The translations under genes were made by a program, and so were the position numbers. Positions 1-30,393 of a stretch of DNA of 36,385 nucleotides are shown here, piece after piece. Position 1 is the first letter of the stretch. Every line of letters starts with the position of its first letter. The notes under the pieces were generated by a model that was not told where the DNA came from, searched no databases, and was given only the letters and a program-made list of their open reading frames with translations. Source of the DNA: a virus. Taxonomy: Duplodnaviria > Heunggongvirae > Uroviricota > Caudoviricetes. The stretch lies in IMG/VR virus record IMGVR_UViG_2698536369_000022; one strand, written 5' to 3'.

Positions 1-381
1 TTATGAGTTCTGGAATTCTTCTGCCCGTCTTTCCAGCTCAGCCATGAAAGAAGTTTTGGCTTTTTCGTGAGCATCTGGGGCCATGATGCTGATGATTTGT
101 ATATTGTCATAATCCATCCAGTGCCTTGTATAAACCAGATAGATATTTGAAGTTCTGTCTATTTGGGCTTTGCTTTTCTTCCATGGTGGTTCTGACGGTA
201 GTCTTATGTGTAATTTATATACAAACGAACCACATAATCTTGCGTTATCTTCCCACTGCCCTTCATTGCCGAATCTGTCAGGGAGAACACCGGTATTTAA
301 CCAGTTTTCCAGAGCCTTTCCGTAAACTTTTGCAATGTCCTGGTATTCAACATCTTTATGAATGCTTACTTTGCTTGCCAT
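1..381 (-). CDS. YafO-like type II toxin (RelE-fold mRNA interferase family), 126 aa
   Basis: Motifs GVLPDRFG, KLHIRL and ..IYLVYTRHW..IISIMAPDAHEK..AELERRAEEF resemble E. coli YafO as I recall it (GVLPDIFG, HIHL, AHLVYCQ..LIAILKPEPHK..MAEAF). Start ATG overlaps the stop of the upstream gene (TGATG). Confidence 0.5.
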   Translation of the reverse strand: MASKVSIHKDVEYQDIAKVYGKALENWLNTGVLPDRFGNEGQWEDNARLCGSFVYKLHIRLPSEPPWKKSKAQIDRTSNIYLVYTRHWMDYDNIQIISIMAPDAHEKAKTSFMAELERRAEEFQNS

Positions 382-1019
382 CAGGAAAACTCCGGTGCCG
401 GGAGTCCCATGTTTTTATGCTCGGCAATAATCATTGCTTTCACATTTCCGTCAGACAGCGTATTGCCTAGGCTGGTCGTTTTGTCTGGTGCGGTGCTTCG
501 TTTGATGGCGTTGATGGCATCACGAGCGATAAACTCTCCCTGCGCAATTGCCCGACCAAAACGAACCAGTTTATTGCGATAGGCGATTCTTTGCTCCATG
601 CTATCCGGATACATTTTTGCCAGGTTATCCGGATCCATTACAATTTTGACAGCCTCTTTAACACGGGTGTGCTGCTTAAGTGACTCTTCGCATATTTTTA
701 TGATTTTTGCGGTTTTGTCAGCAAACAGAGCTCCCTTGCCTCTGTTCTGTCGTTCTTCAATGACTGCATTGAGCGCGGCACGCATGTTGTCATTCAGCCC
801 GTTGATATATTCAATAGCTTCTTCAAGAGGCAGAAACACCTGACCATCATGATGCTCAAATGTAAGCATTGAAACCACTCTGGCGTGTGTCACGGATTCA
901 ATAACTGTTGTTGGTAGTATCGTGCTTTTAGCTGGCACCGGAGCCAGTGATGCTGTCAGAGCTGTAGCAATAGCAGCAATGGCAGCAGACTTTGATTTTT
1001 GTTTCATAATGCACTCCAC
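381..1019 (-). CDS. Hypothetical 212-aa protein with signal-peptide-like N-terminus, translationally coupled to the YafO-like gene
   Basis: N-terminus MKQKSKSAAIAAIATALTASLAPVPA-KS has a basic n-region, Ala-rich h-region and AxA-like cleavage motif. Not similar to YafN/Phd antitoxins from memory. Stop overlaps the downstream start by 1 nt. Confidence 0.6.
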   Translation of the reverse strand: MECIMKQKSKSAAIAAIATALTASLAPVPAKSTILPTTVIESVTHARVVSMLTFEHHDGQVFLPLEEAIEYINGLNDNMRAALNAVIEERQNRGKGALFADKTAKIIKICEESLKQHTRVKEAVKIVMDPDNLAKMYPDSMEQRIAYRNKLVRFGRAIAQGEFIARDAINAIKRSTAPDKTTSLGNTLSDGNVKAMIIAEHKNMGLPAPEFS

Positions 1020-1405
1020 AGGTTGATGTGTTCAGCATATCGCAAATAGCAGCTTGTATAAAGAAACGCCACATCAGCAGTGATCGTTTTACGCGCTTTT
1101 CTTCTTGGATTTGCTGGTCGGTTTTTCTGCGCCAGCTTCCGTCAGTCGTGACATGCTGAAACACTTCTGCACGCTGTTGTTGCAATTGTTCGCCGGGCTT
1201 TACATCAGGCAGGTTATGACCGATGGGTAAGATTTGCCTGATAACAGGCTTATCCGGGCGTCCTTCAATGTTGGATATTTCCACGATGGTGCCTGCTGGC
1301 GGGTAGGCAAAACATCCCGCCTCACTGCCAGCTATGGGGCGGGGGAGTGGTACTGCCGGGTAAATGGGTGTATCGCTTTTTTTGTTACTCCGGCAATTCT
1401 GTCTG

Positions 1406-1666
1406 TTAATTCTGAGGTAAAGGCAAACTCATCTGATTGTTTCCCCTGTGTGAAGCTGGCAGATCATGCCACGGGATACCTTCTGAAGAGTGAACGCCGG
1501 AGGCGTGTTTTGATGTGAATTTATGGAAAGCTTCCAGTGTTGAGAAGCATACGCCGCATTCCAGATTGTTACACTGGTAATACTTTTGCCGCACGGTGTT
1601 TGAATCATTTTCCGGACGACTGGTGCGGATACGGGCAGATGCGCCACAAAGCGGACAACGGAACAT
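1406..1666 (-). CDS. ogr: Ogr/Delta-family zinc-finger late gene activator
   Basis: MFRCPLCGASARIRTSR...YYQCNNLECGVCF matches P2 Ogr (MFHCPLCQHAAHARTSR...YHQCQNVNC) with a Cys4 finger; small protein next to gene D as in P2. Confidence 0.85.
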   Translation of the reverse strand: MFRCPLCGASARIRTSRPENDSNTVRQKYYQCNNLECGVCFSTLEAFHKFTSKHASGVHSSEGIPWHDLPASHRGNNQMSLPLPQN

Positions 1667-1708
1667 AGAGACCTCCCTTAACGTGGTGCTGCCGCTATTC
1701 TAATTTGC

Positions 1709-2818
1709 TCACTCTGTTTCCGCTATCCATTCCGGGATTTTTGCCTCAAGCTCAAGCTGCGTGGTAAAGCCGCTGTTATCAATGGTGTGCTCGGCTTTTG
1801 CAATGATCCAGTCCTGATTATCAATCTCGCTTTTAAATCCTGTTACTGTGCCATGCATTTCGGGGTAGAGTTCTGCACGTCCACGCGCCAGCGTGATGGA
1901 GAATGATGCGGCTCCGCGTTGTAGTTGCTGCCACTTTGCCGCCGCTGCGCGTCTTGCTGCCTGCTCGTTCTGATAAGTCTTGCGTAACACAAACACATTG
2001 CCTTCCGCGCCTTCCATATAATCACCTTCACGGCTGCTGCTTTTCTCCTTTTTGGGTTTTGGCGGTTTGCGGCGTTTCACGCTGACTTTTTTCTTTTTCC
2101 CGTAATTAAGATCAAGCCAGTAAGCGCGTACCCCCGTATACGCTTCGCGGTCAGCAATGCGGAACTGATGGCGATCGCCACTGCTGCGCGTGATGGCGAA
2201 CGATGGCAACGGCTGGCCCTGTGCGTTCACGCCACCGCCAGGCATAATGAATAACAGATTACCGCTTTTTACCGTGGTGATTGCGCCCAGCATTTCCGCC
2301 ATGCGCGTAAGAAAGGACATGTCGCTTTCTTCGGTCTGGTCGGCGTGGTCGATTTCGATATCCATCAGCATTTCGCTGATTTGCGGTTTCAGACCATACC
2401 GATGAGCGATGGCGGATACCACACGCTCAACGGTCACATCATGCCAGGACACCTCACGTTTAACGTTAAATTCATCCCGAAAATCTGCGCTTCTGGCTGA
2501 AACAGTCAGCCTGTCCGGCGGTCCTTCGTGAGCGATTTCATCAACAATGTAAGTGCCTTTTTCTGTCAGCGGTTCCCCTTTCCAGCCAATGAGAACCGTC
2601 AGACGCGCGCCCCGTGGCGGTAGCTGCAACTGGCCATCGGCATCATCCAGCGTGATGGTGAGCTGGTCCGCTTCAAATCCCCGGTTGTCGGTCAGTGACA
2701 GGCTCATCAGGCGTTCTGCCACGCCGGACAGCGTTTTACCCTCGGCGAGAATATCAAAATCCGGCATTTTCACGGGGTCTGTGCCCTGACTGAGCAATTG
2801 CATGGTGGTGTCGGTCAT
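1709..2818 (-). CDS. D: Tail protein D (late control gene D family, tail hub)
   Basis: About 370 aa with gpD-family features; track ORF 1709..2950 has an implausible Pro/Arg-rich leader, so the internal Met (MTDTTMQLL..) at 2818 is the likely start. Confidence 0.8.
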   Translation of the reverse strand: MTDTTMQLLSQGTDPVKMPDFDILAEGKTLSGVAERLMSLSLTDNRGFEADQLTITLDDADGQLQLPPRGARLTVLIGWKGEPLTEKGTYIVDEIAHEGPPDRLTVSARSADFRDEFNVKREVSWHDVTVERVVSAIAHRYGLKPQISEMLMDIEIDHADQTEESDMSFLTRMAEMLGAITTVKSGNLLFIMPGGGVNAQGQPLPSFAITRSSGDRHQFRIADREAYTGVRAYWLDLNYGKKKKVSVKRRKPPKPKKEKSSSREGDYMEGAEGNVFVLRKTYQNEQAARRAAAAKWQQLQRGAASFSITLARGRAELYPEMHGTVTGFKSEIDNQDWIIAKAEHTIDNSGFTTQLELEAKIPEWIAETE

Positions 2819-2975
2819 CTGCTCCCTCCCTGTGTGGCATGGTCGCATGTGCGTGCGGAGGGGGTTACTGCTTTTTGTTGTCGCCGTGGCGGGAGAACGG
2901 CGCAGGGGTGAGATTACGCGCGTGGTGGGTGATGATTGTTGCCGAATCATTTAACGGATACAAGGGGCTGAAGCT
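2819..2975. promoter_or_regulatory. Divergent intergenic region between D and FI; candidate late promoter(s)
   Basis: 157-bp gap between divergently oriented D and FI starts; AAGGGG RBS before the FI ATG. No Ogr TGT-N12-ACA box could be matched confidently. Confidence 0.3.
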
Positions 2976-4160
2976 ATGAGTGAAACTCGTTTTCATGGTG
3001 CCCGTGTTACGGAAAATACCGACCTGGTAACAGCGATTAACGATGTTGATTCCAGCGTTATCGGTATCGTGGCAACGGCGGATGATGCGGACGCGAAGTT
3101 GTTCCCGCTGAACAAGCCCACACTGCTGACCCGCGTCAATGACGTGCTGGGAAAATGCGGAACAACGGGGACGCTTTATCGTGCGCTTAAGGCCATCGCA
3201 GACCAGGTGAGCACAAAGGTGATCGTCGTTCGCGTGGCTGAACACAAAGAAGAAGACGAAAAGACGCAGGATCAACTGGTTATCGGTGGTTCTGAGGATG
3301 ACGGCAGCTATACGGGGATGTATGCGCTGCTTGTTGCAGAGCAGGATGAAAGCATCGGATACCGTCCGCGTATTCTGGCCGCGCCGGAGCTGGACACGGA
3401 GGCGGTGACAAAATCCCTGTGCGTGATTGCGGGTAAACTGCGCGCATTTGTGTATGCCTCATGTCACGGCTGTAACACGATGGCTGAAGCGATTACCTAC
3501 CGCCAGAAATTCAACGAACGTGAAGTGATGCTCTTGTGGCCGGACTTCATCGCCTACAACCCGAAAAGTGGCGAAAACGAAACGTTCCCCGCGCCTGCCT
3601 ATGCGTGCGGCCTTCGTGCGTACATTGACCATGAGCAGGGCTGGCACAAATCGCTGTCCAACGTTCCGGTTAAAAATGTGCTGGGGATGTCCAGGCATGT
3701 GTTCTGGTCGTTACAGGCCGAAGACAGCGATGCCAACAGCCTCAACAACAAAGAAATCACGACCATTATTCGTCGCAACGGGTTCCGCTTCTGGGGCAAC
3801 CGCACACCGGAAACGAACGCCTACATCTTTGAGGTGTATACCCGAACCGCACAGGTGCTGGCTGATTCAATTGCGGAAGCGCAGTTTGAAACCATCGACA
3901 GTCCACTGACGCCTGCGAACGTGAAGGATGTTATCAGTGCCATCAGGGCAAAACTGGATTCACTGGTTACTGCCGGGAAACTGATTGGCGCGGAGTGCTG
4001 GTATGACGTGGTGGATAACAGCACCACGGATTTACGTCAGGGGCGTGTGCGTATTCGCTACAAATATACGCCCGTTCCGCCACTGGAAGACATGGAGCTT
4101 TACCAGACGTTTACTGATGAATACTTTGAACCCGCATTTGCGGTGCTGGGAGGTGCCTGA
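2976..4160 (+). CDS. FI: Contractile tail sheath protein FI
   Basis: 394 aa; motifs AIADQ, KLRAF.Y, DQEQGWHK.LSNV, RRNGFRFWGNRT, YTRTAQV, YTPVPPLE match P2 FI from memory. Confidence 0.9.
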   Translation: MSETRFHGARVTENTDLVTAINDVDSSVIGIVATADDADAKLFPLNKPTLLTRVNDVLGKCGTTGTLYRALKAIADQVSTKVIVVRVAEHKEEDEKTQDQLVIGGSEDDGSYTGMYALLVAEQDESIGYRPRILAAPELDTEAVTKSLCVIAGKLRAFVYASCHGCNTMAEAITYRQKFNEREVMLLWPDFIAYNPKSGENETFPAPAYACGLRAYIDHEQGWHKSLSNVPVKNVLGMSRHVFWSLQAEDSDANSLNNKEITTIIRRNGFRFWGNRTPETNAYIFEVYTRTAQVLADSIAEAQFETIDSPLTPANVKDVISAIRAKLDSLVTAGKLIGAECWYDVVDNSTTDLRQGRVRIRYKYTPVPPLEDMELYQTFTDEYFEPAFAVLGGA

Positions 4161-4672
4161 TGGCTGTGCCAAAACATCTTCGCTTTTTTACGCTGTTTGT
4201 GGATGGTGAAAACGAAGTGGGTAAGGTGACGTCCGTCACTTTGCCTAAGCTGACGCGCAAAACCGACAGCTACCGGGGTGGTGGCATGATGGGGGCGGTA
4301 AGTATTGATCTCGGTCTGGACGACTCCGCGCTTGATGCGAGCTTTGTCATGGGGGGCGCAGTTCGTGAGCTGTTCCTTAAGTATGGCGGCACGATTGACG
4401 GCACGCTGCTGCGTTTTGCGGGTGAATACTACACCGATGCAGAAAGCGACCTGTATGAAGTCGAAATGCGCGGACGTGTGACGGAAATTGATATGGGGGA
4501 AGCCAAACAGGGCGAAGCCACAGCACACACTTACGCCATCAAAAACACCTACTACAAGCTGAGTGTTAACGATCGCCCGTTGTGGGAGATTGACCTGCTG
4601 AACTTCATTTACCGGAAGGACGGCAAGGACATTGTGCCTGACCGTATCCGTTCCGCGCTCGGGCTTGGCTGA
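4160..4672 (+). CDS. FII: Tail tube protein FII
   Basis: 170 aa directly after the sheath gene (start overlaps FI stop), typical sheath-tube pairing; sequence character consistent with P2 FII. Confidence 0.85.
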   Translation: MAVPKHLRFFTLFVDGENEVGKVTSVTLPKLTRKTDSYRGGGMMGAVSIDLGLDDSALDASFVMGGAVRELFLKYGGTIDGTLLRFAGEYYTDAESDLYEVEMRGRVTEIDMGEAKQGEATAHTYAIKNTYYKLSVNDRPLWEIDLLNFIYRKDGKDIVPDRIRSALGLG

Positions 4673-4727
4673 TAAGTAATATGCAGGCGGCGCAGTGCGT
4701 CGCCTCTGACTGAAAAGGAGAAAACTG

Positions 4728-5102
4728 ATGAAAGACATCGATACTGAAACCCGGAATAACACCGTGGCGGATGATGTGACGGCAGGTGAGGATATGGCTG
4801 TCGAACGTGGCGTAAAACTGACCCGACCAATTGAGCGTGGTGGCGAAAAAATCACGTATGTGGAGATCACCGGGGCTATTGAACAGGCTGGATCCCTGCG
4901 TGGTCTGTCGCTGTCTGATGTGCTGAATCTGAAAGCGGATACCATGTTCACGCTGTTGCCTCGCGTGACCTCGCCACGACTGGATGAAGTGATGATTAAA
5001 AAAATGTCGTCACGCGATTTTATTCAGTTGTGCGCTGTGGCTGTAAATTTTATGAGCGAGCCAGACTCTGGCGCGAAGAGCGTGCAGGAGACGGCAGCGT
5101 AA
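4728..5102 (+). CDS. E: Tail assembly chaperone E
   Basis: Small ORF between tube and tape measure genes with an overlapping -1 frame ORF, the conserved P2 E/E' arrangement. Confidence 0.75.
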   Translation: MKDIDTETRNNTVADDVTAGEDMAVERGVKLTRPIERGGEKITYVEITGAIEQAGSLRGLSLSDVLNLKADTMFTLLPRVTSPRLDEVMIKKMSSRDFIQLCAVAVNFMSEPDSGAKSVQETAA

Positions 5103-5266
5103 TCACCCTGGTGTGCTTTGAGCGCATCGAAGATCTGGTGGCAGATATCGCCGCCATTTTTAACTGGTCGCCCGCCGAAATCTTCATGATGACGCCCGGC
5201 GAAGTGGTTAGCTGGCGTGAGCGGGCGGCACTTCGCAGCGGGAATGCAGATAATGAAGACTCTTGA
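4728..5266 (+). CDS. E+E' fusion made by programmed -1 ribosomal frameshift (join about 4728..5003 with 5003..5266)
   Basis: ORF 5030..5266 is in the -1 frame relative to E and opens right after a TAA at 4997-4999; a run of seven A (4998-5004, codons AAA AAA of E) is the only obvious slippery site before the E stop; E' ends ..IFNWSPAEIFMMTPGEVVSW.. overlapping the start of T. Confidence 0.6.
4997..5004 (+). promoter_or_regulatory. Candidate -1 frameshift slippery site (T AAA AAA A)
   Basis: Poly-A heptamer in frame with E Lys91-Lys92, directly after the -1-frame stop codon. Confidence 0.45.
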
Positions 5267-8060
5267 CATCCGGGTCGCTTTCAGCGCCGTTGACAGGCTG
5301 ACCCGGCCTGCCGAAAACGCCCGCCGCCTGATGGGGCAGTTTGGTGACTCCATCCAGCGAACGCAGGGGGCGATCAAAAATCTCGAGCGTCAGGCGCGAT
5401 CATTTGAGCGCGCCCGCGACGCTGTCAGTAAAGCGGATGCTGGCATCGTGAAAGCACGACGCCAGCTTAACGCCCTTAATCAGTTACAACGCACGGGTAC
5501 AGTGCTCAGCGAAAAACAACAAAAGCTGATGCAGCAGTTAAGCACCCGGCTTGAACGCCTGAATGAATCGCGCACACGGGAAATTCAGAAAATGCGGGAA
5601 CTTGGCGGAGAGCTGAAACGCCACGGCATTTCCCTGACAGGCAGCGATAACACCATCCAGCAGGCCATCAGACGCACCGAACAGTACAACAACCAACTTG
5701 AACGCGAACGGCAGGCGCTTGCGCGTGTAACGCGGGCGCGTGAGCGGTATTCGCGCGCGCAGGAAACCGCGGGAAAACTGAAAACAGGTGGTGCGCTGGC
5801 AATTGGTGCTGCAGCGGCTGGCGGCTATGCTGCCGGGCGTTTTTTGCAGCCTGCGATCGGGTTCGGCAAAGAGATGTCCCGCGTTCAGGCACTGACGCGA
5901 ATCGACAAAAACAGCCCGCAGTTTAAGGCGCTGCGTGAGCAGGCGTTAAAACTTGGTTCTGAAACACAGTTTACTGCGAGTGATGCCGCCAGTGGGCAGA
6001 GCTTTCTGGCAATGGCTGGTTTTACTCCGCAGGCCATTCAGGCCGCATTGCCCGGTGTTCTTAATATGGCGCTGGCAGGTGGCGTCGAACTCGGCGAGAC
6101 GGCGGATATAGGCTCCAATATCCTCACACAGTTCAACCTGACAGCCGATCAAATGGACCGGGTTGGCGATACGCTGACAGCGGCATTCACCCGGACCAAT
6201 ACTGATTTACGCGCGCTGGGCGAAACCATGAAGTATACCGGTCCGGTTGCCGCAAAACTTGGTATCAGTCTTGAAGAAGCGGCAGCCATGGCCGGGATGC
6301 TTGCCAATAATGGTCTTCGTGGAAGCGATGCTGGTACGGCCATGCGCGCAAGTCTGTCCCGCCTTGCATCACCGCCAAAAGCTGCGGCTGATGCGCTGAA
6401 AGAGCTGGGGGTGTCAGTTGCTGACGCCAGAGGCAAAATGCGCCCGATGGAGGATGTGCTGCTTGATCTCTATAAGGCGACACAAAAATACGGACAGGTG
6501 GACCAGGTCTCCTTCTTCAAGGGCATCGCCGGAGAAGAGGCGTTCGTTGGTTTGCAGACGCTTGTTGCGGCGGCTGGTTCAGGAGAGCTGCAAAAACTGA
6601 CCAGAGAATTGCAGGGGGCAAGGGGAGAGGCCGATCGCGTTGCAAAAGTAATGGCCGATAATCTTGATGGGGACCTGAAAAGTCTCGACAGCGCATGGGA
6701 AGGTCTTCGTATTCGCATCAGTGATCTGGTTGACGGTCCGCTGCGTTCTGTCACGCAGTGGCTCACGCGGGTGCTTGAAAAAATCACCTCGCTGGCGCAG
6801 GCCCATCCGGTACTGACGCGCCAGCTACTGATAGCAGGCGGTGCGTTGCTGGCAATGACTGCAACGGTTGGCTCGTTGTCGCTGGCTATTGGTGTGCTTG
6901 CTGGCCCGCTGGCAAAACTGCGTCTTGGCTTTTCCCTCCTGACCGGTTCAATGAATGCTGTCAGACTCCTGCCAGCACTATGGGGAATGGTGACGGGTTC
7001 CGTTTCGTTACTGGGGGGCGCTATCGGGGCGTTGTTCAGTCCGGTCGGTCTTATCGTGGCTGCGCTTGCCGGAGCTGCCGTTCTCATCTGGAAATACTGG
7101 GATCCCATCAGGGCATTTTTTGCCGGGGTGTTCAGCGGGATTATGGAAAGGCTGACCCCGTTGCGCGAAACCTTTGAACGGTTTGGTCCTGTTTTTGACG
7201 CAATCGGAAGCGGGATCAGCCAGGTGTTTAACTGGTTTAAATCGCTGTTGTCACCGATGGAGTCCAGCAAGGAAACGCTGGATAAATGTACCAGTGCTGG
7301 CGAGATATTCGGTAACGTTCTTGGCGGTGCGTTACAACTTGTTCTGACACCTGCAAAAATGCTACTGGATACGCTGGCGTGGATACTTGAAAAACTTGGC
7401 GTCCTTCCGGATGAAGCGGAAAGGGCGCGCAAGAAAATCGAAGACGCACAGCGTGCGGCCATTCTTCAGGACAAGGTTGCTCTGTTTCAGGGAGACATTG
7501 CGAAAATCAATCCGCCGAAGCCTGTGGAAAATGGCAATGGCACCGGAGGTGATAAACCCAAAGACAACAAACCGCTCACAGACAGCAATACCGGGACGCT
7601 ACGCAGACTCAGCAAAATTGCTGATAACACAGGTAAGCTGGTTGATGAGACGAAAAAACGCATTGGCCCCGGCGATATTGTCTTTAAGAACCTGCCCCGC
7701 GCACTTGCTGTTCGTGGGGAGTGGCAGGAGCGGAAGATTGCACAGGTCAGTAAGCCTGCCCCCGCAATTAATATCACACCCGTGGTCCCGGCTCCGCTGC
7801 CTCCGGCGCTGATCCCTGTTGTTGCGGCCAGCTCCCGCCCGGTGGCGGAGGCCATACGATCTCAAGTGGCATCAGTTCCTGTAACTTCCCGTAACCGGGA
7901 GCCTGTTGCCTCCGGATTTGGTGGTGAAATTCATGTTCATCTGCATAACGTTGTTACGCAGAACCCCCGCGAACTGGCGAAACTGGTCGGTGAAATGGTC
8001 AGGGCAGAAATGGAACGGCGCGCCCGTGCCGGGCGTGGCAGTTTTTACGATAAAGATTGA
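5217..8060 (+). CDS. T: Tail tape measure protein T
   Basis: 947 aa, long coiled-coil-rich N-terminal half, Gly/Ala-rich hydrophobic segment, position after E/E'; start may be an internal Met (MKTLDIRVAF..). Confidence 0.85.
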   Translation: MSGRHFAAGMQIMKTLDIRVAFSAVDRLTRPAENARRLMGQFGDSIQRTQGAIKNLERQARSFERARDAVSKADAGIVKARRQLNALNQLQRTGTVLSEKQQKLMQQLSTRLERLNESRTREIQKMRELGGELKRHGISLTGSDNTIQQAIRRTEQYNNQLERERQALARVTRARERYSRAQETAGKLKTGGALAIGAAAAGGYAAGRFLQPAIGFGKEMSRVQALTRIDKNSPQFKALREQALKLGSETQFTASDAASGQSFLAMAGFTPQAIQAALPGVLNMALAGGVELGETADIGSNILTQFNLTADQMDRVGDTLTAAFTRTNTDLRALGETMKYTGPVAAKLGISLEEAAAMAGMLANNGLRGSDAGTAMRASLSRLASPPKAAADALKELGVSVADARGKMRPMEDVLLDLYKATQKYGQVDQVSFFKGIAGEEAFVGLQTLVAAAGSGELQKLTRELQGARGEADRVAKVMADNLDGDLKSLDSAWEGLRIRISDLVDGPLRSVTQWLTRVLEKITSLAQAHPVLTRQLLIAGGALLAMTATVGSLSLAIGVLAGPLAKLRLGFSLLTGSMNAVRLLPALWGMVTGSVSLLGGAIGALFSPVGLIVAALAGAAVLIWKYWDPIRAFFAGVFSGIMERLTPLRETFERFGPVFDAIGSGISQVFNWFKSLLSPMESSKETLDKCTSAGEIFGNVLGGALQLVLTPAKMLLDTLAWILEKLGVLPDEAERARKKIEDAQRAAILQDKVALFQGDIAKINPPKPVENGNGTGGDKPKDNKPLTDSNTGTLRRLSKIADNTGKLVDETKKRIGPGDIVFKNLPRALAVRGEWQERKIAQVSKPAPAINITPVVPAPLPPALIPVVAASSRPVAEAIRSQVASVPVTSRNREPVASGFGGEIHVHLHNVVTQNPRELAKLVGEMVRAEMERRARAGRGSFYDKD

Positions 8061-8066
8061 GGAGTC

Positions 8067-8561
8067 ATGGCCATGATGATGATCTACGGCATGTTTGTTT
8101 TTGAGCTGCGCACGTTGCCGCATCAGCAGTTACAGCAAAACAAAAGCTGGCGGCATGTGAAAAATGAACGCGTTAACCGTTCAGCAAGCTGGCAGTATAT
8201 CGGGGCAGGCGATGATCGCATCGTTCTTTCTGGTGTGCTTTATCCTGAAATTACAGGTGGCGAAGTGTCGCTTTCGTTGCTGACCACGCAGGCATATACA
8301 GGACGCCCCTGGCCTCTGATTGATGGTGTCGGGCAGATTTACGGCATGTATGTCCTGACCGGAACGAATACGACCCGCTCCGAGTTTGATCGCTACGGTA
8401 AGGCGAAAAAGATAGAATTTTCACTGACCCTTGAACGCTGTGATGAGGATTTGCGGGAGCGCCTGCAATCCTCATCGTTCAGTGATATGCTGCCCGGCTT
8501 CAAAGATAAGGTCACATCATCCCTTAACAGCGCGGCCAGCTCCGTTAAAGGGCTGTTTTGA
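8067..8561 (+). CDS. U: Tail protein U
   Basis: MAMMMIYGMFVFELRTLPHQQ...GRPWPLIDGVGQIYGMYV..SEFDRYGKAKKIEFSLTL matches P2 gpU (MMLALGMFVF...GRAWPLLDGTGMIYGMYV..SEFDRLGKPRTIDFTLTL). Confidence 0.85.
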   Translation: MAMMMIYGMFVFELRTLPHQQLQQNKSWRHVKNERVNRSASWQYIGAGDDRIVLSGVLYPEITGGEVSLSLLTTQAYTGRPWPLIDGVGQIYGMYVLTGTNTTRSEFDRYGKAKKIEFSLTLERCDEDLRERLQSSSFSDMLPGFKDKVTSSLNSAASSVKGLF

Positions 8562-8568
8562 TTAACGC

Positions 8569-8598
8569 AAAACCGCTAATGGTCAGATTAGCGGTTTT
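8569..8598. terminator. Hairpin shared by convergent U and invertase genes
   Basis: Perfect 12-bp stem AAAACCGCTAAT / ATTAGCGGTTTT with 6-nt loop, followed by CATTTTCC on the plus strand; overlaps the invertase stop codon. Confidence 0.55.
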
Positions 8599-9193
8599 CA
8601 TTTTCCTGAGTCTTCCTGGTTGTTTCTTCAGCCTGTATATCGCCTACAGGGTGATAACGATAAATCGTCGATATGCCGATGTCGTAAATGATCGCCAGTT
8701 GTTTCCTGTCATGACCGTTTTTAATCAGCCTCGCTATTTGCGCGTGTTGTTCTTTTGTCAACTTCGGGCGACGTCCGCCAATGCGTCCTTGTGCGCGTGC
8801 TGCTGCCAGCCCGGCCAGTGTACGCTCTACAATTAATTCACGTTCCATTTCGGCTAAAGCCCCCATGACGTGAAAAAAGAAACGCCCCATGGGTGTTGAT
8901 GTGTCAATGCTGTCCGTCAGACTACGGAAATTAACACCTTTTTCCCGCAATTCCTCAATAAGCGTGATCAGGTGTTTCATACTTCTGCCCGGTCTGTCCA
9001 GCTTCCAGACAACCAGCGTATCTCCTTCTGATAGCGTTCTGAGCAGTTTTTTCAATCCCGGTCTGGCTGATTTCGTTCCGCTGATTTTATCTTCAAAAAT
9101 TAGTTCACATCCTGCGCACTCCAGCGCGTTACGCTGCAATTCTGTATTCTGGTCATTTGTTGATACGCGGACATAGCCAATAAGCATGATCAT
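8588..9193 (-). CDS. Serine DNA invertase (Hin/Gin/Cin/Pin family)
   Basis: MIMLIGYVRVSTNDQNTELQRNAL...LVVWKLDRPGRS...GRFFFHVMGALAEMERELIVERTLAGLAAARAQGRIGGRRPKLT closely matches Hin (MATIGYIRVSTIDQNIDLQRNAL...GRFFFHVMSALAEMERELIVERT..); catalytic Ser in YVRVST; C-terminal HTH. Confidence 0.9.
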   Translation of the reverse strand: MIMLIGYVRVSTNDQNTELQRNALECAGCELIFEDKISGTKSARPGLKKLLRTLSEGDTLVVWKLDRPGRSMKHLITLIEELREKGVNFRSLTDSIDTSTPMGRFFFHVMGALAEMERELIVERTLAGLAAARAQGRIGGRRPKLTKEQHAQIARLIKNGHDRKQLAIIYDIGISTIYRYHPVGDIQAEETTRKTQENENR

Positions 9194-9214
9194 CCCCCTG
9201 AATAAAAACCGGAG

Positions 9215-9610
9215 ATGATGCCAGTTAGCCGTAATCTCTGCATTTTCTTAAACGTTGGTTTGGGAGAAGCGGCAAAACGAAATGTAGGAACAGGTTCAGG
9301 TCAGATACCGGATATGAGTTCTTTTTCTGGCAGCATTGCCAGCAAGGGATATCAGAAGTTACCGGGAGGATTGATTATCCAATGGGGGGCAGGAGATGCA
9401 GGTACGGGTTATGTAGGCTCGACAGGCAATGAGATGAATTTCCCAATCGCTTTTCCGTCACAATGTTTTCAGGTGGTGACGTCCTACGATAATGGTGGAG
9501 GAAAAATTGTTGCCGGGGCAGCAGGGAATATGACCAGGACAGGATTTCTTCTACGCTGTGATGCTTCTGGTGGCAATTATAATTTTCGCTGGTTTGCAAT
9601 AGGGTGCTGA
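9215..9610 (+). CDS. Promoterless alternative tail-fibre C-terminal cassette (Hv'), expressed only after inversion
   Basis: Shares the GLGE crossover peptide with gene H, then a 113-aa Gly-rich C-terminal domain; opposite orientation to H; the N-terminal 12 codons of the track ORF are probably not translated. Confidence 0.6.
   Translation: MMPVSRNLCIFLNVGLGEAAKRNVGTGSGQIPDMSSFSGSIASKGYQKLPGGLIIQWGAGDAGTGYVGSTGNEMNFPIAFPSQCFQVVTSYDNGGGKIVAGAAGNMTRTGFLLRCDASGGNYNFRWFAIGC
9243..9268. promoter_or_regulatory. hix/gix-like 26-bp inversion site (right)
   Basis: TTTTCTTAAACG-TT-GGTTTGGGAGAA inside codons NVGLGE of the alternative tail-fibre cassette; resembles hixL TTCTTGAAAACC-AA-GGTTTTTGATAA. Confidence 0.65.
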
Positions 9611-9611
9611 T

Positions 9612-10055
9612 ATGAGTAATTATTATTTTTCACGGACGACGTTAGCTTTTTATCCGGTAGATATGCTGGAGCTATATCGCTCATATGACAGCTTACCGGA
9701 TGATATTACGCCAGTATCTGATGAAATATTTTTGACTTATTCAGGAACACCACCTGAAGGGAAAGCGCGCGGTGCAAATGATGATGGACAACCTGAGTGG
9801 GTTGATATTCCACCAATGACTCCTGAAGAAGCAATACTCCTTGCCACAGCTCAAAAACAAAATCTTATTGATAATGCCAACGAATATATGAACAGTAAGC
9901 AATGGCCTGGCAAAGCAGCTATTGGTCGTCTGAAAGGTGACGAACTGGCGCAATATAATTTGTGGCTGGATTATCTGGACGCACTGGAACTGGTCGATAC
10001 TTCCAGTGCGCCAGATTTTGAATGGCCTACGCCTCCGGCAGTTCAGGCCAGATGA
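9612..10055 (+). CDS. Tail fibre assembly chaperone (alternative, Tfa')
   Basis: 147 aa; C-terminus ..LDYLDALELVDTSSAPDFEWPTPP parallels the C-terminus of the minus-strand Tfa (..LDYIDAVEATDTSTAPDVIWPELP); directly follows the alternative fibre cassette. Confidence 0.8.
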   Translation: MSNYYFSRTTLAFYPVDMLELYRSYDSLPDDITPVSDEIFLTYSGTPPEGKARGANDDGQPEWVDIPPMTPEEAILLATAQKQNLIDNANEYMNSKQWPGKAAIGRLKGDELAQYNLWLDYLDALELVDTSSAPDFEWPTPPAVQAR

Positions 10056-10629
10056 CATCAGGCGCGGTGCTGGTATCTGTTGCCTCCACCGCGTCAATGT
10101 AATCCAGCACAGCGTTTAGACGGGTTGTTTCTGCCTGCGTCAGTTTACGTCCGGCCTGCAATTTCAGTTGAATCAGACTGATGGAAGTCATTGCTGCATC
10201 AATCAGTGACTGGCGCTGTGCTTCTGCCGCGTCTACTGCGGCACCGTGTTGTGCCTCAGTATCTGCCACCCATTTTTCACCATCCCATTTATCGTATGGC
10301 GTTAACGGGGCGATAGTGGTTGTTTTTTCGGGGTAATCACCCGGAGTTGTGATTTCTTTGGCGTCTCCCGTTTCGGTGTTATAGACGATTTCACCGCGAT
10401 GGTCTGGCACATATTCCCATGAGTTTAAATCCATCGAACGGCAGATAGCATAACCCGCCTTATGTGTGCCAGGGGCATCTAAACAGGAATATGCAGGGAT
10501 ACCGACGCCAACAGCAAGATATTCATTTGAAGTGGAAATATATTCTCGAGTTTCACCATCATAGTTATAGACGGTAATATTCCCTGCTTTGGTGGCGATA
10601 ATCTCGCTATTTAATATGGCGTTATCCAT
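10027..10629 (-). CDS. G: Tail fibre assembly chaperone G
   Basis: 200 aa immediately downstream of H; conserved Tfa C-terminal motif; 3' ends of the two tfa genes overlap convergently. Confidence 0.85.
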   Translation of the reverse strand: MDNAILNSEIIATKAGNITVYNYDGETREYISTSNEYLAVGVGIPAYSCLDAPGTHKAGYAICRSMDLNSWEYVPDHRGEIVYNTETGDAKEITTPGDYPEKTTTIAPLTPYDKWDGEKWVADTEAQHGAAVDAAEAQRQSLIDAAMTSISLIQLKLQAGRKLTQAETTRLNAVLDYIDAVEATDTSTAPDVIWPELPEA

Positions 10630-12254
10630 TATGCAGCCCTCACAATATAGTTAAATGCAATATTCCTTGGTCGAACCCTAAAACCAGCCCCTGCGCCTGC
10701 TCCAGTTGGTAGCAATTCGATAGAGGGGTATGCTGTTGCAGTGGAATATAAACCTTCACGGGAATCATAATCAGTCGTCATATAGTTAGACGCATTATCA
10801 GAAACAGTTTCTGTCGGTCTGGTAACCAGACGATAAGAGCCAGTGGTTGTTGACCTGACCAGACCAAAACTTTCAACCAGAGTGGCTTTTTGAAAGCTTA
10901 ATAATCCACGACCACTGTCAGCTCCGCGCCCATCATCCCAGCCACGAATAAACTCACCACGTAAATCAGGCAATTTATTTGTCGGATAAGCCTTTGCCAG
11001 TTCCGGGTATTCTTCAGCAGAAAAAGCTGCACCGTTGCATTTCAGCCAGCCTGTCGGCGGAGTGGCTGAAGGCCATGGAACAGGTACACCAACAGGTAAT
11101 GCCGAACCTTCTCCCAAACCAAGGTAATCAAGAACTCCCTGAGTGCTGGTTTTACCAAGAATGGCACGTCCAACACTTGTCAACGCGGTTAACGCGGCAC
11201 GATCTGCCCCTGTAAAATATGGGAGTTTATCTGCTGATGTAGCAAGCTCTGCCAGCGCCGTCAGGGTGGCATCCTTCGGTTGCTTACCCGCAAGCGCGTT
11301 AGTCATGGTGGTCGCAAAATTCGGGTCATTGCCCAGCGCCGCAGCCAGTTCGTTCAGCGTGTTCAGTGCATCAGGTGACGAATCTACAAGTGCGGCAATC
11401 GCGGCCATAACGAAAGCCGTGCTTGCGATCTGGGTACTATTAGTCCCCTGTGGCGCTGTTGGTGTTGTTGGCGTTCCGGTCAGTGCCGGGCTGTTTAATG
11501 GTGCTTTCTTGTTCGTTTCATCCATTACCGCCTTAACAGATTTTGGTGTCGCTGCCAGCGTTTCAGACGTGCTGTTCGTGGCGCTACTGAGCTGAACAAT
11601 CCCTTTTTGTGTAGTGGTGGCGTTCTGGGCGGTATATTTCCCGTTAGCCAGGTCATATGCAGCCTTAACCGCTTTCGGTGTTGCGGCCAGTGTTTCTGAT
11701 TCACTGTTAATTGCACTGCTTAACTGAGTAAAACCTTTTACGGTCAGCGAGGCGTCCGGGTGACGACGTGACTGTTCGTGCTCTGAGATTTTATCATCCA
11801 CATATTTGCGGGTTGCCAGAACCACAGACGGGTCGATTTTCAGCGTGATGGCTTCGGTGTTCGTGACAACCAGAATCATGCGGATAGTCTGGGTGCGTCC
11901 ACTGCCTTCCTGCAACTGCGGTTTGTACGTTTCCGGGCAGTTTGCCACCGCAATGAGTACACCTTCATCATCATAAAGACCAATCTCACGGATCCAGAAT
12001 CCTCCCTCGTTTTCAGGGATGATTTGCTCCGCAATAATCTGGCTCTGATTGTTAGGGTCAACACTCAGAAGATTCAGCGGTGCAATGCGTTTCTGGTTAA
12101 TCAGTTTTGTTTGTGCAGGGTCTGGTGTTGGTAACACACCATTTGCATCACCAACGGCCATTTGCGTCAGATTCAGCTTACTGCCGAGCATCGTCGCGTT
12201 AGCCAGTCGTGCCGCGCCCTGATTAGTCAGAATGGCGTAGTATTTCACTGTCAT
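10629..12254 (-). CDS. H: Tail fibre protein H (constant N-terminal part plus currently expressed variable C-terminus)
   Basis: N-terminal ..TQMAVGDANG..FWIREIGLYDDEGVLIAVAN..YKPQL.EGSGR and the repeats HEQSRRHPDASLTVKGFTQLSSA / TQKGIVQLSSATNSTSETLAATPK match P2 gpH from memory. Confidence 0.9.
   Translation of the reverse strand: MTVKYYAILTNQGAARLANATMLGSKLNLTQMAVGDANGVLPTPDPAQTKLINQKRIAPLNLLSVDPNNQSQIIAEQIIPENEGGFWIREIGLYDDEGVLIAVANCPETYKPQLQEGSGRTQTIRMILVVTNTEAITLKIDPSVVLATRKYVDDKISEHEQSRRHPDASLTVKGFTQLSSAINSESETLAATPKAVKAAYDLANGKYTAQNATTTQKGIVQLSSATNSTSETLAATPKSVKAVMDETNKKAPLNSPALTGTPTTPTAPQGTNSTQIASTAFVMAAIAALVDSSPDALNTLNELAAALGNDPNFATTMTNALAGKQPKDATLTALAELATSADKLPYFTGADRAALTALTSVGRAILGKTSTQGVLDYLGLGEGSALPVGVPVPWPSATPPTGWLKCNGAAFSAEEYPELAKAYPTNKLPDLRGEFIRGWDDGRGADSGRGLLSFQKATLVESFGLVRSTTTGSYRLVTRPTETVSDNASNYMTTDYDSREGLYSTATAYPSIELLPTGAGAGAGFRVRPRNIAFNYIVRAA
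11109..11134. promoter_or_regulatory. hix/gix-like 26-bp inversion site (left), inside gene H
   Basis: Plus strand TTCTCCCAAACC-AA-GGTAATCAAGAA, encoding LGLGE of H on the minus strand; the TTCTCCCAAACC half-site is shared in inverted orientation with the site near 9250. Confidence 0.65.
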
Positions 12255-15772: not shown

Positions 15773-16079
15773 GGTTGTTGTCCTCGTTGTTCAGTCGTTG
15801 CAGCCTGCGCTGTTCCAGTAATTCAATGGCCCGTTTATCCGCGTTACAGGTTTCCAGTGCATCCAGAAGGCGGTCGCCCCATATACCGAGATTTCCCCAT
15901 GTGGGAGTGTCAGGGAAGGGGGGGGGCGTTACCGGTATGGTCAGCGTCTGCGGGATAAGCCGGACTGACGGCGCTGGCCGTGGCGCGTTCTGCGTGCCTG
16001 CGCAACCTGTCAGTAAAACGAGCGTCAGGCAAAGCGTGGGCGCATTCATCTTTTGCAATATCGTTGCGTAGCTGTTCAC
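15759..16079 (-). CDS. lysC: Outer-membrane lipoprotein spanin (LysC/Rz1-like), nested in the lysB region in another frame
   Basis: N-terminus ..MNAPTLCLTLVLLTGCAG contains a lipobox (LLTGC), followed by a Pro-rich segment; start may be the internal Met near 16049. Confidence 0.65.
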   Translation of the reverse strand: MNSYATILQKMNAPTLCLTLVLLTGCAGTQNAPRPAPSVRLIPQTLTIPVTPPPFPDTPTWGNLGIWGDRLLDALETCNADKRAIELLEQRRLQRLNNEDNNHAEN

Positions 16080-16317
16080 GTCTGGCCTCTCCGTCCTGAT
16101 TGCGTTGCTGATTTTCCGCGCGGAGTTGTGCCAGCACCTGCTGCATATCCTGTACCCCGGTGCTGATGATATTCAGGGTGTCGACGGTACTTTTCAGGGT
16201 GCTGGCCTGCGCTTCGTTTCTGGCGTTCTCCCGGCCCAGCGACCACGACAGACGCATGGATTCTCCCCATGCGGCAATCAGAAGGAAAGCGACGCCCAGC
16301 GTGGGCCAGAGCTTCAT
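15910..16317 (-). CDS. lysB: Inner-membrane spanin (LysB/Rz-like)
   Basis: From internal Met MKLWPTLGVAFLLIAAWGE (N-terminal TM) followed by a coiled-coil-like region; the track ORF upstream extension overlaps the endolysin gene and is unlikely to be coding. Confidence 0.7.
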   Translation of the reverse strand: MKLWPTLGVAFLLIAAWGESMRLSWSLGRENARNEAQASTLKSTVDTLNIISTGVQDMQQVLAQLRAENQQRNQDGEARREQLRNDIAKDECAHALPDARFTDRLRRHAERATASAVSPAYPADADHTGNAPPLP

Positions 16318-20583: not shown

Positions 20584-20737
20584 AGTTTTTGCCCCTCTGA
20601 CTGGTTCTTCAGTCATGATGGCAAAGCGTAACAGGCTGATACAAAGGGCTTTTGTTGTAAGAAAACGGCCAGAACAGGGGGTTAAGGAGAACGGTTTCGC
20701 GCGCGGGTAATCTTCCTGTAATTACTCAGGGGGAGCA
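20584..20737. promoter_or_regulatory. Divergent intergenic region between O and P (expected late promoters for capsid and terminase operons)
   Basis: 154-bp gap between divergently transcribed O and P, as in P2; GGGGGAG RBS before P. No Ogr box verified. Confidence 0.35.
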
Positions 20738-26130: not shown

Positions 26131-27090
26131 TTACTCCTTGTCCATTGCGTACAGCCCATTAACCAGAGCAAACTGTGGCACCCCGTCCGCGATGAAAGTC
26201 GCATTAACTCCGCAGGCTTCGCGGATAGCGGGTGCCACAATCTCCGCCCCTCCACCGACAACCATCACCCGCCCGTAACCCGAAAAAACCGCCAGCGCGC
26301 GGATCACGCGTTGTTTCAGTGTTTCTTCCTTTTCACGAATAACCGCCATCAGGCTGTTGTAATGCGCGTCATTGTGGATGTGCTGGCGCAGCCAGGCTTC
26401 ATCATGGCGATGTTCGATAATGGTATTGGCGATGTGGTGACTGGTACGCATACCGTTAGTGGCCATCACCGACAGTACGGCATCGGCCATCAGGGAAACG
26501 CCTACGTGTGGATCGCAAAACACCTGGCTGATACCTGCCAGTTGTCCCTGAACCTTTGCCACATCCAGCGTGGTTCCGCCTAAATCCACAATCAGCAGGG
26601 ATTCAAACGGACTCATGTCAGCCAGTGCCTTAAAGCCAGCCGGAATGGATTCAGGCATAACCCGTACGTTGCGGATAGTGAATGCCTCACTGTTCTGATA
26701 CTCCACCGGGCGCATAACGTTCGCTTTTTTGCGGTTGATGTTGGCCATGTCCGGCTGGGCGTTTGTGTCGAAATACTCGCTCAGTGGCAGGGTGACAACC
26801 ACATCCACCTCCTGTGGCGTGATGCCTGATTTGACCAGCGCATGATGAATGGCAATGACATTCACATCGCTGTACTGGTATTGCGTGTCGGTCGTCTGGA
26901 CAAAGCGATCGCTGACCGGATCAAAACCATAGCGCACGCCATCAAGCATGTAGTTCGCGGGCTGCATGCCACCGAACGGCGCAGACCATTCCGACTTGAA
27001 GCTGTTCGGGCTGATGGCGTTGCGGCGTTCGCCGTTCTCAGTCCATGCCAGCTTGATGTTGGTGGAGCCGTCGTCGATGTGAATTTTCAT
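26131..27090 (-). CDS. parM: ParM/StbA-family actin-like ATPase
   Basis: MKIHIDDGSTNIKLAW, ISPNSFK, YSDVNVIAIHHALVKSG, NRKKAN, VRVMPESIPAG, LLIVDLGGTTLDVAKV, VMVVGGGAE and ALVNGLY align with R1 ParM motifs as I recall them. Confidence 0.75.
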   Translation of the reverse strand: MKIHIDDGSTNIKLAWTENGERRNAISPNSFKSEWSAPFGGMQPANYMLDGVRYGFDPVSDRFVQTTDTQYQYSDVNVIAIHHALVKSGITPQEVDVVVTLPLSEYFDTNAQPDMANINRKKANVMRPVEYQNSEAFTIRNVRVMPESIPAGFKALADMSPFESLLIVDLGGTTLDVAKVQGQLAGISQVFCDPHVGVSLMADAVLSVMATNGMRTSHHIANTIIEHRHDEAWLRQHIHNDAHYNSLMAVIREKEETLKQRVIRALAVFSGYGRVMVVGGGAEIVAPAIREACGVNATFIADGVPQFALVNGLYAMDKE

Positions 27091-30007: not shown

Positions 30008-30393
30008 GGCTGGTATCCCGTCACGCGCTGCCACTCCTGCGAGAAGAGGGCAGAAAGGCGGTTAAATTCAGCGGTGTATTCACTCAGCGAGGCACACCCG
30101 CCAGCAGTGCGATGCGCCAGCATTGCCGCAAATACGGAGGCCGGGGAGTCGTAATACGCCAGCAGTGATTCTCCGTGTGGTGTCAGGCAGTGCAACGCCA
30201 GCCCGTGTGGTGTGAAGTCCACGCGGTAGCAGTCGTCTACTGTGAAATAAAGGGTGTCTGCATTCTCCGGTTTTGTGGTGCGTGCTCTGTTGTCACGACC
30301 ACGGATGTAGAGATCAAATAATCCCTGAAGAACGGGAGCCAGACGGGTGTCCTGTGTGCGCACCCATCTTGTGAAGTCATGAGCGTCAATCAT
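30004..30393 (-). CDS. Hypothetical protein (129 aa), coupled upstream of A
   Basis: Protein-like ORF whose stop overlaps the A start; no recognised motif. Confidence 0.55.
   Translation of the reverse strand: MIDAHDFTRWVRTQDTRLAPVLQGLFDLYIRGRDNRARTTKPENADTLYFTVDDCYRVDFTPHGLALHCLTPHGESLLAYYDSPASVFAAMLAHRTAGGCASLSEYTAEFNRLSALFSQEWQRVTGYQP

Follow-up and report, generated by a model that had tools for sequence, protein, structure and literature searches.

The F operon of phage P2 runs from the promoter pF through FI, FII, E, E', T, U and D and is followed by ogr, which places the gene for an Ogr-family activator beside D. Pfam searches and tblastn against P2 recovered the same gene set, again with an Ogr-family activator encoded beside D, in the 36,385-nucleotide viral sequence analysed here (IMG/VR record IMGVR_UViG_2698536369_000022; referred to as the window). 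The proteins of the window and of P2 share only 33-49% identity, and the gap between D and ogr is 42 bp in the window compared to 81 bp in P2. Unlike in P2, FI through U is inverted in the window, D lies outside the F operon, and the D-FI interval would make a second region of divergent promoters, without counterpart in P2.

Table 1. Features of the window (coordinates are those of the whole stretch).
Feature	Position	Strand	Remarks
ogr	1406-1666	-	Ogr/Delta-type zinc-finger late activator, 86 aa, ATG start, 42 bp downstream of D
D	1709-2818	-	Tail or baseplate hub protein, 369 aa; Pfam Phage_GPD
Divergent D-FI control region	2819-2975		157 bp
Predicted pD -10-like hexamer, GACCAT	2839-2844	-	43.5-48.5 bp from dyad centre, mirror-symmetric with that of pF
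Predicted Ogr-type activator dyad, TTGT-N12-AGAA	2878-2897		Centre 2887.5; 88.5 bp to FI ATG, 69.5 bp to D ATG
Predicted pF -10-like hexamer, GATGAT	2931-2936	+	43.5-48.5 bp from dyad centre
FI	2976-4160	+	Tail sheath; Pfam Phage_sheath_1, Gp18_domIII_N, Phage_sheath_1C
FII	4160-4672	+	Tail tube; Pfam Phage_tube (E=1e-46)
E + E'	4728-5266	+	E 4728-5102; E' extension in -1 frame, open 5000-5266 (three-frame translation)
T	5253-8060	+	Tape measure protein; Pfam PhageMin_Tail (E=1e-55); start most likely
U	8067-8561	+	Tail protein; Pfam Phage_P2_GpU (E=2e-38)
Terminator-like hairpin	8569-8598	both directions	Common to U and invertase gene
Serine DNA invertase (Gin/Cin/Pin/Hin type)	8588-9193	-	Pfam Resolvase and HTH_7
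cix-like crossover sites	9243-9269; 11108-11134	+; -	Flank tail-fibre switch
Invertible tail-fibre segment	9243-11134		Between the window's only two cix-like crossover sites
Content of fibre segment			Alternative fibre C-terminus 9215-9610; assembly chaperones 9612-10055 (+) and 10027-10629 (-); 3' end of H
Second TTGT-N12-AGAA copy	20655-20674		Divergent P-O region; centre 73.5 bp to P ATG, 81.5 bp to O start 20583 (P88 annotation)

The initial annotation had described FI through U as inverted relative to D, ogr and the remaining late genes, and both the gene identities and the strands were borne out by Pfam and ORF analysis (Table 1). The block FI-FII-E/E'-T-U (2976-8561) lies on the strand opposite to that of D, ogr and the late genes O to G, the order is inverted with respect to P2 and 186, and D is no longer found 3' of U. 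The divergence of D and FI across 157 bp also stands; the D reading frame is open back to 2950, and the ATG at 2818, which has a Shine-Dalgarno sequence and is conserved across loci, is the start given in the P88 annotation. At the other end, the hairpin said to be shared by the tail-to-tail U and invertase genes is real, with a 12-bp stem, U-runs on both strands, folding energies of -15.9 and -16.9 kcal/mol and z-scores of -3.0 and -4.1. The earlier ogr coordinates (1429-1647) were corrected to those in Table 1. The ogr product matches Pfam PF04606 (Ogr_Delta, E=5e-14), its translation begins MFRCPLCG and continues to a C-X4-C motif, and it is 100% identical to an ORF that the P88 record leaves unannotated. 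Identity to the P2 proteins is 49% for D and 46% for FI. The match of E, the tail assembly chaperone, to Phage_TAC_7 is weak, and candidate slippery sites for the E/E' frameshift are an A7 run (4998-5004) and A_AAT_TTT (5045-5051). E and E' are annotated as two separate ORFs in P88, and the start of T follows the P88 annotation.

Sequence comparison identifies the window as a P88-like prophage (Xuanwuvirus, Peduoviridae). Nucleotide identity of positions 1371-9186 to P88 and its Xuanwuvirus relatives was 91-96%; an 8-kb query was covered to 98-99% at 92-96% identity, in one piece in most phage records, and the same order was found uninterrupted in 13 phage records (91-96% identity). Gene order and orientation in P88 are those of the window, with the RefSeq annotation and tblastn mapping in agreement, and the PhiSM annotation gives the same picture. 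P88, P884B11, 500465-2, 520873 and Citrobacter PhiSM all carry ogr and D, then FI, FII, E, E', T and U, then the invertase and the fibre switch; the differences between the window and P88 and other Xuanwuvirus members are allelic only (E 75% identical, invertase 81-86%, tail fibres diverged). In Chuche and PhiR44_2 other cargo takes the place of the invertase. The inverted FI-U block is also present in Salmonella SEN4/5, in Klebsiella phages of the genera Reginaelenavirus and Reipivirus, and in Serratia KSP20. In these phages the D-FI gap is 151-157 bp, and D, FI, FII, E and U are 44-75% identical to the window's proteins (T down to 28%); unlike the window, they have no invertase adjoining U. 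P88, PhiSM, SEN4/5 and KSP20/PP4 are viable phages, in that particles or plaques are made (PMC5285337, PMC6456863, PMC5261728, PMC9826266).

The divergent order spans four ICTV genera as well as Serratia phage KSP20, and was seen in SEN4 (Senquatrovirus), Kp4871-3 (Reginaelenavirus), Kp4847-1 (Reipivirus) and KSP20 alike. Of 5426 complete E. coli genomes, 1109 carried the D-FI junction in one piece, and none of the 1388 E. coli genomes examined had a colinear U-to-D junction, so that only one of the two orientations was seen in natural populations of this species. Among loci from GTDB genomes, D was opposite to and divergent from FI, and not directly downstream of U, in each of the clade's 60 loci; identity of D was at least 61% in 60 of 60 divergent loci and at most 53% in 14 of 14 colinear ones. 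Since the compared sequences are related by descent, counts of conserved features overstate independence. Raw identity thresholds failed to part the two arrangements for FII and U, whereas in neighbour-joining trees of D, FI, U and FII a single split in each separated divergent from colinear loci, the colinear comparison set being small (15 loci). More distant P2-like phages, of Burkholderia and Mannheimia and Serratia MQ-4, are colinear. The xenorhabdicin xnp1 locus, considered as a member of the clade, was rejected, as its described variable region between fibre and sheath genes is of the colinear type.

On these comparisons, the inverted order is the standard, inherited arrangement of a large P2-related clade comprising P88, SEN4, KSP20 and their relatives, and not an anomaly. 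The suggestion that the arrangement was unusual or possibly recent is therefore not upheld, since this orientation is the standard one in close and distant relatives alike (P88, P884B11, PhiSM, 500465-2, Chuche, the Klebsiella Reginaelenavirus and Reipivirus phages, KSP20 and SEN4/5), which is the finding that the initial annotation itself had named as grounds for rejection. P2 and 186 do not provide a template for all Peduoviridae. The clade for which the inverted block is the normal state is large; roughly one in five complete E. coli genomes harbours a member, as do many other Enterobacterales, and the orientation is hence no reason for a flag from annotation pipelines or from software that detects rearrangements.

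Several explanations for the orientation were weighed. Misassembly, which had been raised as a possibility, has a vanishingly small chance of being correct, as independent assemblies contain the identical junction: those of 1109 complete E. coli genomes and of 13 phages, each sequenced separately, together with 60 loci from other genera. The serine invertase abuts U, and a recent or reversible flip of the 5.7-kb block by this enzyme, at cryptic sites in the D/FI and U/invertase junctions, could be imagined. The initial annotation had thought such an origin conceivable while reporting no hix-like site at either junction. We likewise found no hix- or cix-like site there, and no inverted repeat at either junction; inverted crossover sites flanking FI-U (2819-8600) were absent, the only two in the window being those of the fibre segment, and an inverted-repeat search across 1300-10800 revealed nothing that joins the two junctions. 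The generic hix core AAACCNNGGTTT gave matches at chance level and was useful only as a pointer to 9250 and 11116. The invertase gene shares about 80-92% nucleotide identity with its counterparts in other phages. The same orientation occurs with no invertase there in SEN4, Chuche, the Klebsiella phages and the majority of the 60 divergent loci from GTDB, and the other orientation was seen in 0 of 1388 E. coli genomes. A flip by the invertase is hence very improbable. In the Mu G, P1 C and e14 P systems (Gin/Cin/Pin/Hin), a segment beside a serine invertase contains alternative fibre C-termini and chaperones and is bounded by crossover sites, some 26 bp long, in inverted orientation. The arrangement at 8588-11134 is of this type, while the FI-U block is unflanked by such sites and is not subject to switching. 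The invertase switches only the tail-fibre segment and had no part in the inversion of FI-U.

The block might instead have been replaced by the module of another phage in reverse orientation. P2-like phages are mosaic, and identities of FII and U within the divergent clade fall to 40-47%, overlapping the values obtained against colinear phages. However, relative to P2, SEN4 and Kp4871-3, FI-U has diverged in step with the flanking late genes; trees show the same split whether the gene lies outside the block (D) or inside it (FI, FII, U); and the distance from the pF site to the FI ATG is that of P2. Identity to P2 is 33-46% for FI-U and 41-55% for Q, P, N, V, W, J and D; this comparable degree of divergence argues for an origin in situ, and we regard replacement as unlikely. 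The single split seen in each of the four gene trees fits one ancient inversion. We propose that this inversion, occurring in place, carried the F-operon promoter together with FI through U. One breakpoint would have fallen precisely between U and D, the other on the upstream side of the activator site of pF. As a result D-ogr would have become a separate leftward unit, and the dyad-symmetric site at which Ogr would bind in pF would have come to lie some 70 bp upstream of D.

With FI-U inverted, D is no longer downstream of U, and D and ogr must be transcribed from the 157-bp gap; the view that D has been uncoupled from its operon holds in this sense. Across 57 distinct homologous intergenic sequences the gap measures 140-162 bp, with a mean of 154; in the window, a scan for sigma-70 promoters detected no consensus promoter in it. 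It contains a single TTGT-N12-AGAA dyad. A dyad of the type TGT-N12-A(C/G)A is found at the same position in 58 of 58 distinct sequences, with at least five of six core bases matched in 54. The half-sites are kept while the spacers have diverged, and two Providencia loci show a symmetric TCT...AGA change. The position is shared by SEN4/5, the Klebsiella phages and KSP20, and the dyads of SEN4, Kp4871-3 and KSP20 are perfect TGT-N12-ACA; the right half-site of the window is AGA, not ACA. The dyad centre lies 78.5-88.5 bp from the FI ATG across the clade, compared to 83 bp at the annotated pF site of P2, which shares a dyad of the TGT-N12-xCA type. Its distance from the D ATG is 64.5-80.5 bp across the clade, with a single exception (L062, 55.5 bp). 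The pattern TTGT-N12-AGAA occurs three times in 36 kb against 2.45 expected, which is chance level, and only the locations are non-random, two of the three lying in the two divergent late regions, D-FI and P-O. The perfect P2-consensus TGT-N12-ACA has five matches in the window, fewer than expected by chance and none at late promoters. The 137-bp gap upstream of R (15773-15909) is without such a dyad as a pV-type site, and a near-match at 16224-16247 is intragenic.

Alignment anchored on the dyad revealed -10-like blocks about 44-50 bp from its centre on both sides. On the FI side a gA..AT block is conserved at +44 to +50, and transcription from pF is predicted to start at about 2943-2945. The pF geometry was taken from the mapped start site of P2 pF. 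On the D side the conserved block, GAAACCATC, GAAATCATG or GCAATCATG, resembles the -10 region of P2 pO, GAAACTGATGCC; the pD start predicted from geometry and conservation, at about 2830-2833, implies a short D leader of approximately 12-17 nt. From the same two lines of evidence, we infer that pD depends on Ogr.

It could be argued that D has a promoter of its own (weak and constitutive, otherwise regulated, or using a second activator site) and that the dyad serves pF only. The conserved D-side blocks, a GCGCGCG run and the -10-like element, could form such a promoter, and the distance from the dyad to D is more variable than that to FI. Against this, the gap is without a sigma-70-like promoter and keeps a length of around 150 bp, D belongs to the late structural genes, the D-side -10-like block mirrors that of pF about the dyad, and P2 offers a precedent of one site for two promoters. 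An independent D promoter is a minority possibility that we consider rather doubtful. The single D-FI dyad probably drives transcription in both directions, as the pP/pO site of P2 does. We lean, with some reserve, towards the reading that the dyad is bidirectional and that the inversion was tolerated because the pF site it carried at once gave the orphaned D-ogr pair late, Ogr-dependent transcription. In this bidirectional arrangement Ogr would bind the one site and activate back-to-back late promoters with two starts: pF would drive FI-U and end at the hairpin, and the new pD would drive D with read-through into ogr. Taken as a whole, the account of a P88-like prophage in which the FI-U orientation is ancestral and fixed in a deep enterobacterial clade, arose by one ancient inversion in situ, and is served by a shared dyad activating pF and pD is one in which we have good confidence.

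In the literature on P88, Xuanwuvirus, SEN4/5, KSP20, inversion in Peduoviridae and P2 late promoters, we found no discussion or test of the inverted block, and a divergent architecture with a shared dyad is apparently undescribed for the clade. If the proposal is correct, these phages possess a second divergent promoter pair of the pP/pO kind and a direct positive feedback loop from Ogr to pD to ogr, and the clade may illustrate from nature how a promoter region that depends on an activator came to be used in both directions after an inversion. A parallel exists in P2 itself, whose record assigns a single activator site (3057-3087) to pO and pP together; transcription begins 55-56 bp away from it on each side. 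The D-FI gap of the window resembles that region in having one dyad-symmetric activator site between divergent late genes, and its dyad-to-ATG distances of 69.5 and 88.5 bp, together with symmetric hexamers at 43.5-48.5 bp, are compatible with P2-like starts about 55 bp off centre.

ORF listing and Pfam searches of the window bore out the gene calls of the initial annotation and confirmed that FI, FII, E/E', T and U are oriented opposite to ogr and D and to the genes from O to G. The tail-fibre switch region lies beyond the invertase gene and is followed by the minus-strand genes H, I, J, W, V and onwards through O; P and Q have plus-strand orientation, and the right end carries early genes and int. 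The D-FI gap is 157 bp with the D start at 2818, an extension of the D ORF to 2950 (413 aa) not being conserved, while the ogr start was corrected to the ATG at 1666. U and the invertase gene converge on a hairpin with a 12-bp stem, which folds on both strands. E/E' has two candidate -1 slippery sites, and the -1 frame of E' runs over the start of T. At the left end, beyond ogr, a YafO-family toxin ORF lies beside two ORFs with no family match, a region that looks like cargo at the ogr-proximal prophage end. A ParM actin-like segregation gene is placed downstream of the replication gene A, as in P88, a hint that this P2-type prophage might have the option of being maintained like a plasmid.

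Features of the window discussed in the text
Feature	Position	Strand	Assignment
YafO-family ORF	1-381		type II toxin, Pfam E=1e-27
ORFs beside it	381-1019; 928-1284		no family match
ogr	1406-1666	-	Ogr_Delta, E=5e-14
D	1709-2818	-	Phage_GPD
-10-like hexamer	2839-2844	-	GACCAT
D-FI dyad	2878-2897		TTGT-N12-AGAA
-10-like hexamer	2931-2936	+	GATGAT
FI	2976-4160	+	sheath
FII	4160-4672	+	tube
E	4728-5102	+	chaperone
E'	5000-5266	+	-1 frame, open
Slippery site candidates	4998-5004; 5045-5051		A7 run; A_AAT_TTT
T	5253-8060	+	tape measure
U	8067-8561	+	P2 GpU
Hairpin	8569-8598		12-bp stem
Invertase	8588-9193	-	Resolvase + HTH_7
Crossover site	9243-9269	+	cix-like
Fibre C-terminus	9215-9610		alternative
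Tail-fibre chaperone	9612-10055	+	assembly chaperone
Tail-fibre chaperone	10027-10629	-	assembly chaperone
Crossover site	11108-11134	-	cix-like
R, S, V	14099-15909		genes contiguous or overlapping; range includes the 137-bp gap upstream of R
P-O dyad	20655-20674		TTGT-N12-AGAA
ParM gene	26131-27090		StbA_N + ParM_N
A	27167-30034		replication

Comparison with related phages, as suggested in the initial annotation, showed that P88, SEN4 and KSP20 share this orientation. By the ground that annotation itself had named, its suggestion of an unusual, invertase-linked or artefactual rearrangement is refuted. A megablast search of the phage collection with 1300-9300 returned 13 records, mostly matching in a single piece with 90-99% query coverage and 91-96% identity, including P88, P884B11, 500465-2, 520873, 503458, Citrobacter PhiSM, PhiR44_2 and Chuche; the annotated orientations in P88, P884B11 and PhiSM, all classified as Xuanwuvirus, were those of the window. 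An unbroken D-FI junction (2300-3500) occurs in 1109 of 5426 complete E. coli genomes. For comparison a synthetic P2-type junction was used, in which the U 3' end runs into the D 5' end; 1388 genomes carry these sequences, and 0 of them have this junction unbroken. These results exclude both misassembly, which had been raised initially, and flip-flop of the FI-U block within a population. Particles or plaques have been obtained for P88, PhiSM, SEN4/5 and the KSP20-like PP4 (PMC5285337, PMC6456863, PMC5261728, PMC9826266), and the divergent gene order is therefore functional.

The ogr gene of P88 (locus L003, NC_026014.1, 34476-34733) is 99-100% identical yet unannotated, and labels in PhiSM (L002, OR565851.1, 2294-4745) are shifted, D being named ogr and the sheath 'late control gene D protein'. 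The small ORFs P88 gp50 and SEN4_27, which overlie the promoter region, are probably spurious. IS100-family (IS21-like) insertions interrupt the matched tail region in 520873 (CP025923.1/NC_049344.1) and 503458 (CP025874.1/NC_049341.1), and the D-FI region is disrupted in Klebsiella sp. WOUb02 (L046); all three are likely to be defective prophages. A P88-type tail region under a Firmicute label ('Vagococcus sp. WN89Y', L011, NZ_JBQPOM010000071.1), 94-99% identical to E. coli (E, 76%), is probably assembly contamination or misassignment.

The depth of the arrangement was assessed by tblastn with D and FI. The divergent order was found at ~55-75% protein identity in Klebsiella Kp4871-3 (Reginaelenavirus) and Kp4847-1 (Reipivirus), Serratia KSP20 and Salmonella SEN4/5 (Senquatrovirus), and the colinear order in Cartapus, pro483, P2, L-413C and phages of Burkholderia, Mannheimia and Serratia (MQ-4). 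A GTDB scan with one genome per species returned 80 loci, 60 of them divergent (H+ U- T- E- FII- FI- D+ ogr+), all with D at least 61% identical, and 14 colinear, all with D at most 53% identical; L046 was one further, disrupted, locus of divergent type. Hosts included Salmonella, Serratia, Klebsiella, Enterobacter, Pantoea, Erwinia, Pectobacterium, Brenneria, Xenorhabdus, Photorhabdus, Providencia, Morganella, Yersinia, Hafnia and Edwardsiella. The order initially considered unusual is the normal one of a known phage group, shared by phage records, E. coli genomes and these 60 loci. Neighbour-joining trees were built for D, FI, U and FII, and in every one a single split divided divergent from colinear loci. 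Raw FII and U identities overlap between the two arrangements, and the divergent clade is therefore old.

The block could have been acquired as a foreign module or inverted in place. FI-U proteins (33-46% identity) and the other virion proteins (41-55%) are equally distant from those of P2, and in comparisons with SEN4 and Kp4871-3, too, FI-U divergence parallels that of the genes on either side. Since the block has diverged in step with its surroundings, these sequence comparisons favour a single in-situ inversion over the foreign module. A role for the adjacent invertase, entertained initially, was not borne out. The gene is missing beside U in SEN4, the Klebsiella phages and Chuche, and is present in only ~9 of the 60 divergent GTDB loci. 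The window contains two crossover sites (common sequence TTGGTTTGGGAGAA) and no others; between them lie the 3' end of H, a pair of assembly chaperones and the alternative fibre C-terminus, and 9243-11134 is a complete Gin/Cin/Pin-type tail-fibre switch of the classical kind. The intervals 2819-2975 and 8562-8600 are not linked by any inverted repeat, and the invertase is a bystander to the inversion.

An Ogr-type dyad lies in the D-FI gap, and its half-sites are identical to those in the P-O divergent gap, these being two of only three matches to TTGT-N12-AGAA in 36 kb. The O start as listed (20616) probably lies 33 nt upstream of the true one; with the start annotated in P88, equivalent to 20583, the P-O dyad is 73.5 bp from the P start codon and 81.5 bp from that of O. 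All 58 distinct homologous gaps (140-162 bp) contain a TGT-N12-A(C/G)A-type dyad, centred 78.5-88.5 bp from the FI ATG and, in 57 of them, 64.5-80.5 bp from the D ATG (55.5 bp in the remaining locus, L062), with diverged spacers. The perfect TGT-N12-ACA occurs in SEN4, KSP20 and Kp4871-3. Two Providencia loci (L047 and L055) have TTCT-N12-AGAA for TTGT-N12-ACAA, a symmetric change expected of co-evolution with a symmetric DNA-binding activator. When the 30 least-redundant gaps were anchored on the dyad, -10-like blocks were conserved ~44-50 bp from its centre on both sides, the D-side block resembling the -10 region of P2 pO; the hexamers in the window lie 43.5-48.5 bp from the centre. No sigma-70 consensus promoter was found in the D-FI gap.

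The most economical model, judging from site conservation and the P2 analogy, is that the inversion brought pF, together with the symmetric Ogr site, to just upstream of D, so that the same site would now serve both pF and a new pD, whose transcript is predicted to read through into ogr, just 42 bp downstream. A literature search found no paper commenting on the FI-U inversion, which is already visible in deposited, annotated genomes including KSP20, P88 and SEN4; only the predicted shared bidirectional Ogr site is new, and mildly so.

In the P2 GenBank record the pF activator site is annotated ~83 bp from the FI ATG, and one activator site (3057-3087) is shared by pO and pP, whose mapped transcription starts lie 55-56 bp away on either side; P2 sites are themselves imperfect (TGT-N12-CCA). 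R, S and V in the window lack a P2-like pV gap, and no Ogr-type dyad was found in the 137-bp gap that precedes R (15773-15909); late promoters may differ in number or placement between this clade and P2. The locus would work like the P2 late system but lacks the defining feature of the P2 F operon, D colinear with U, and it belongs fully to the P88-type organisation.
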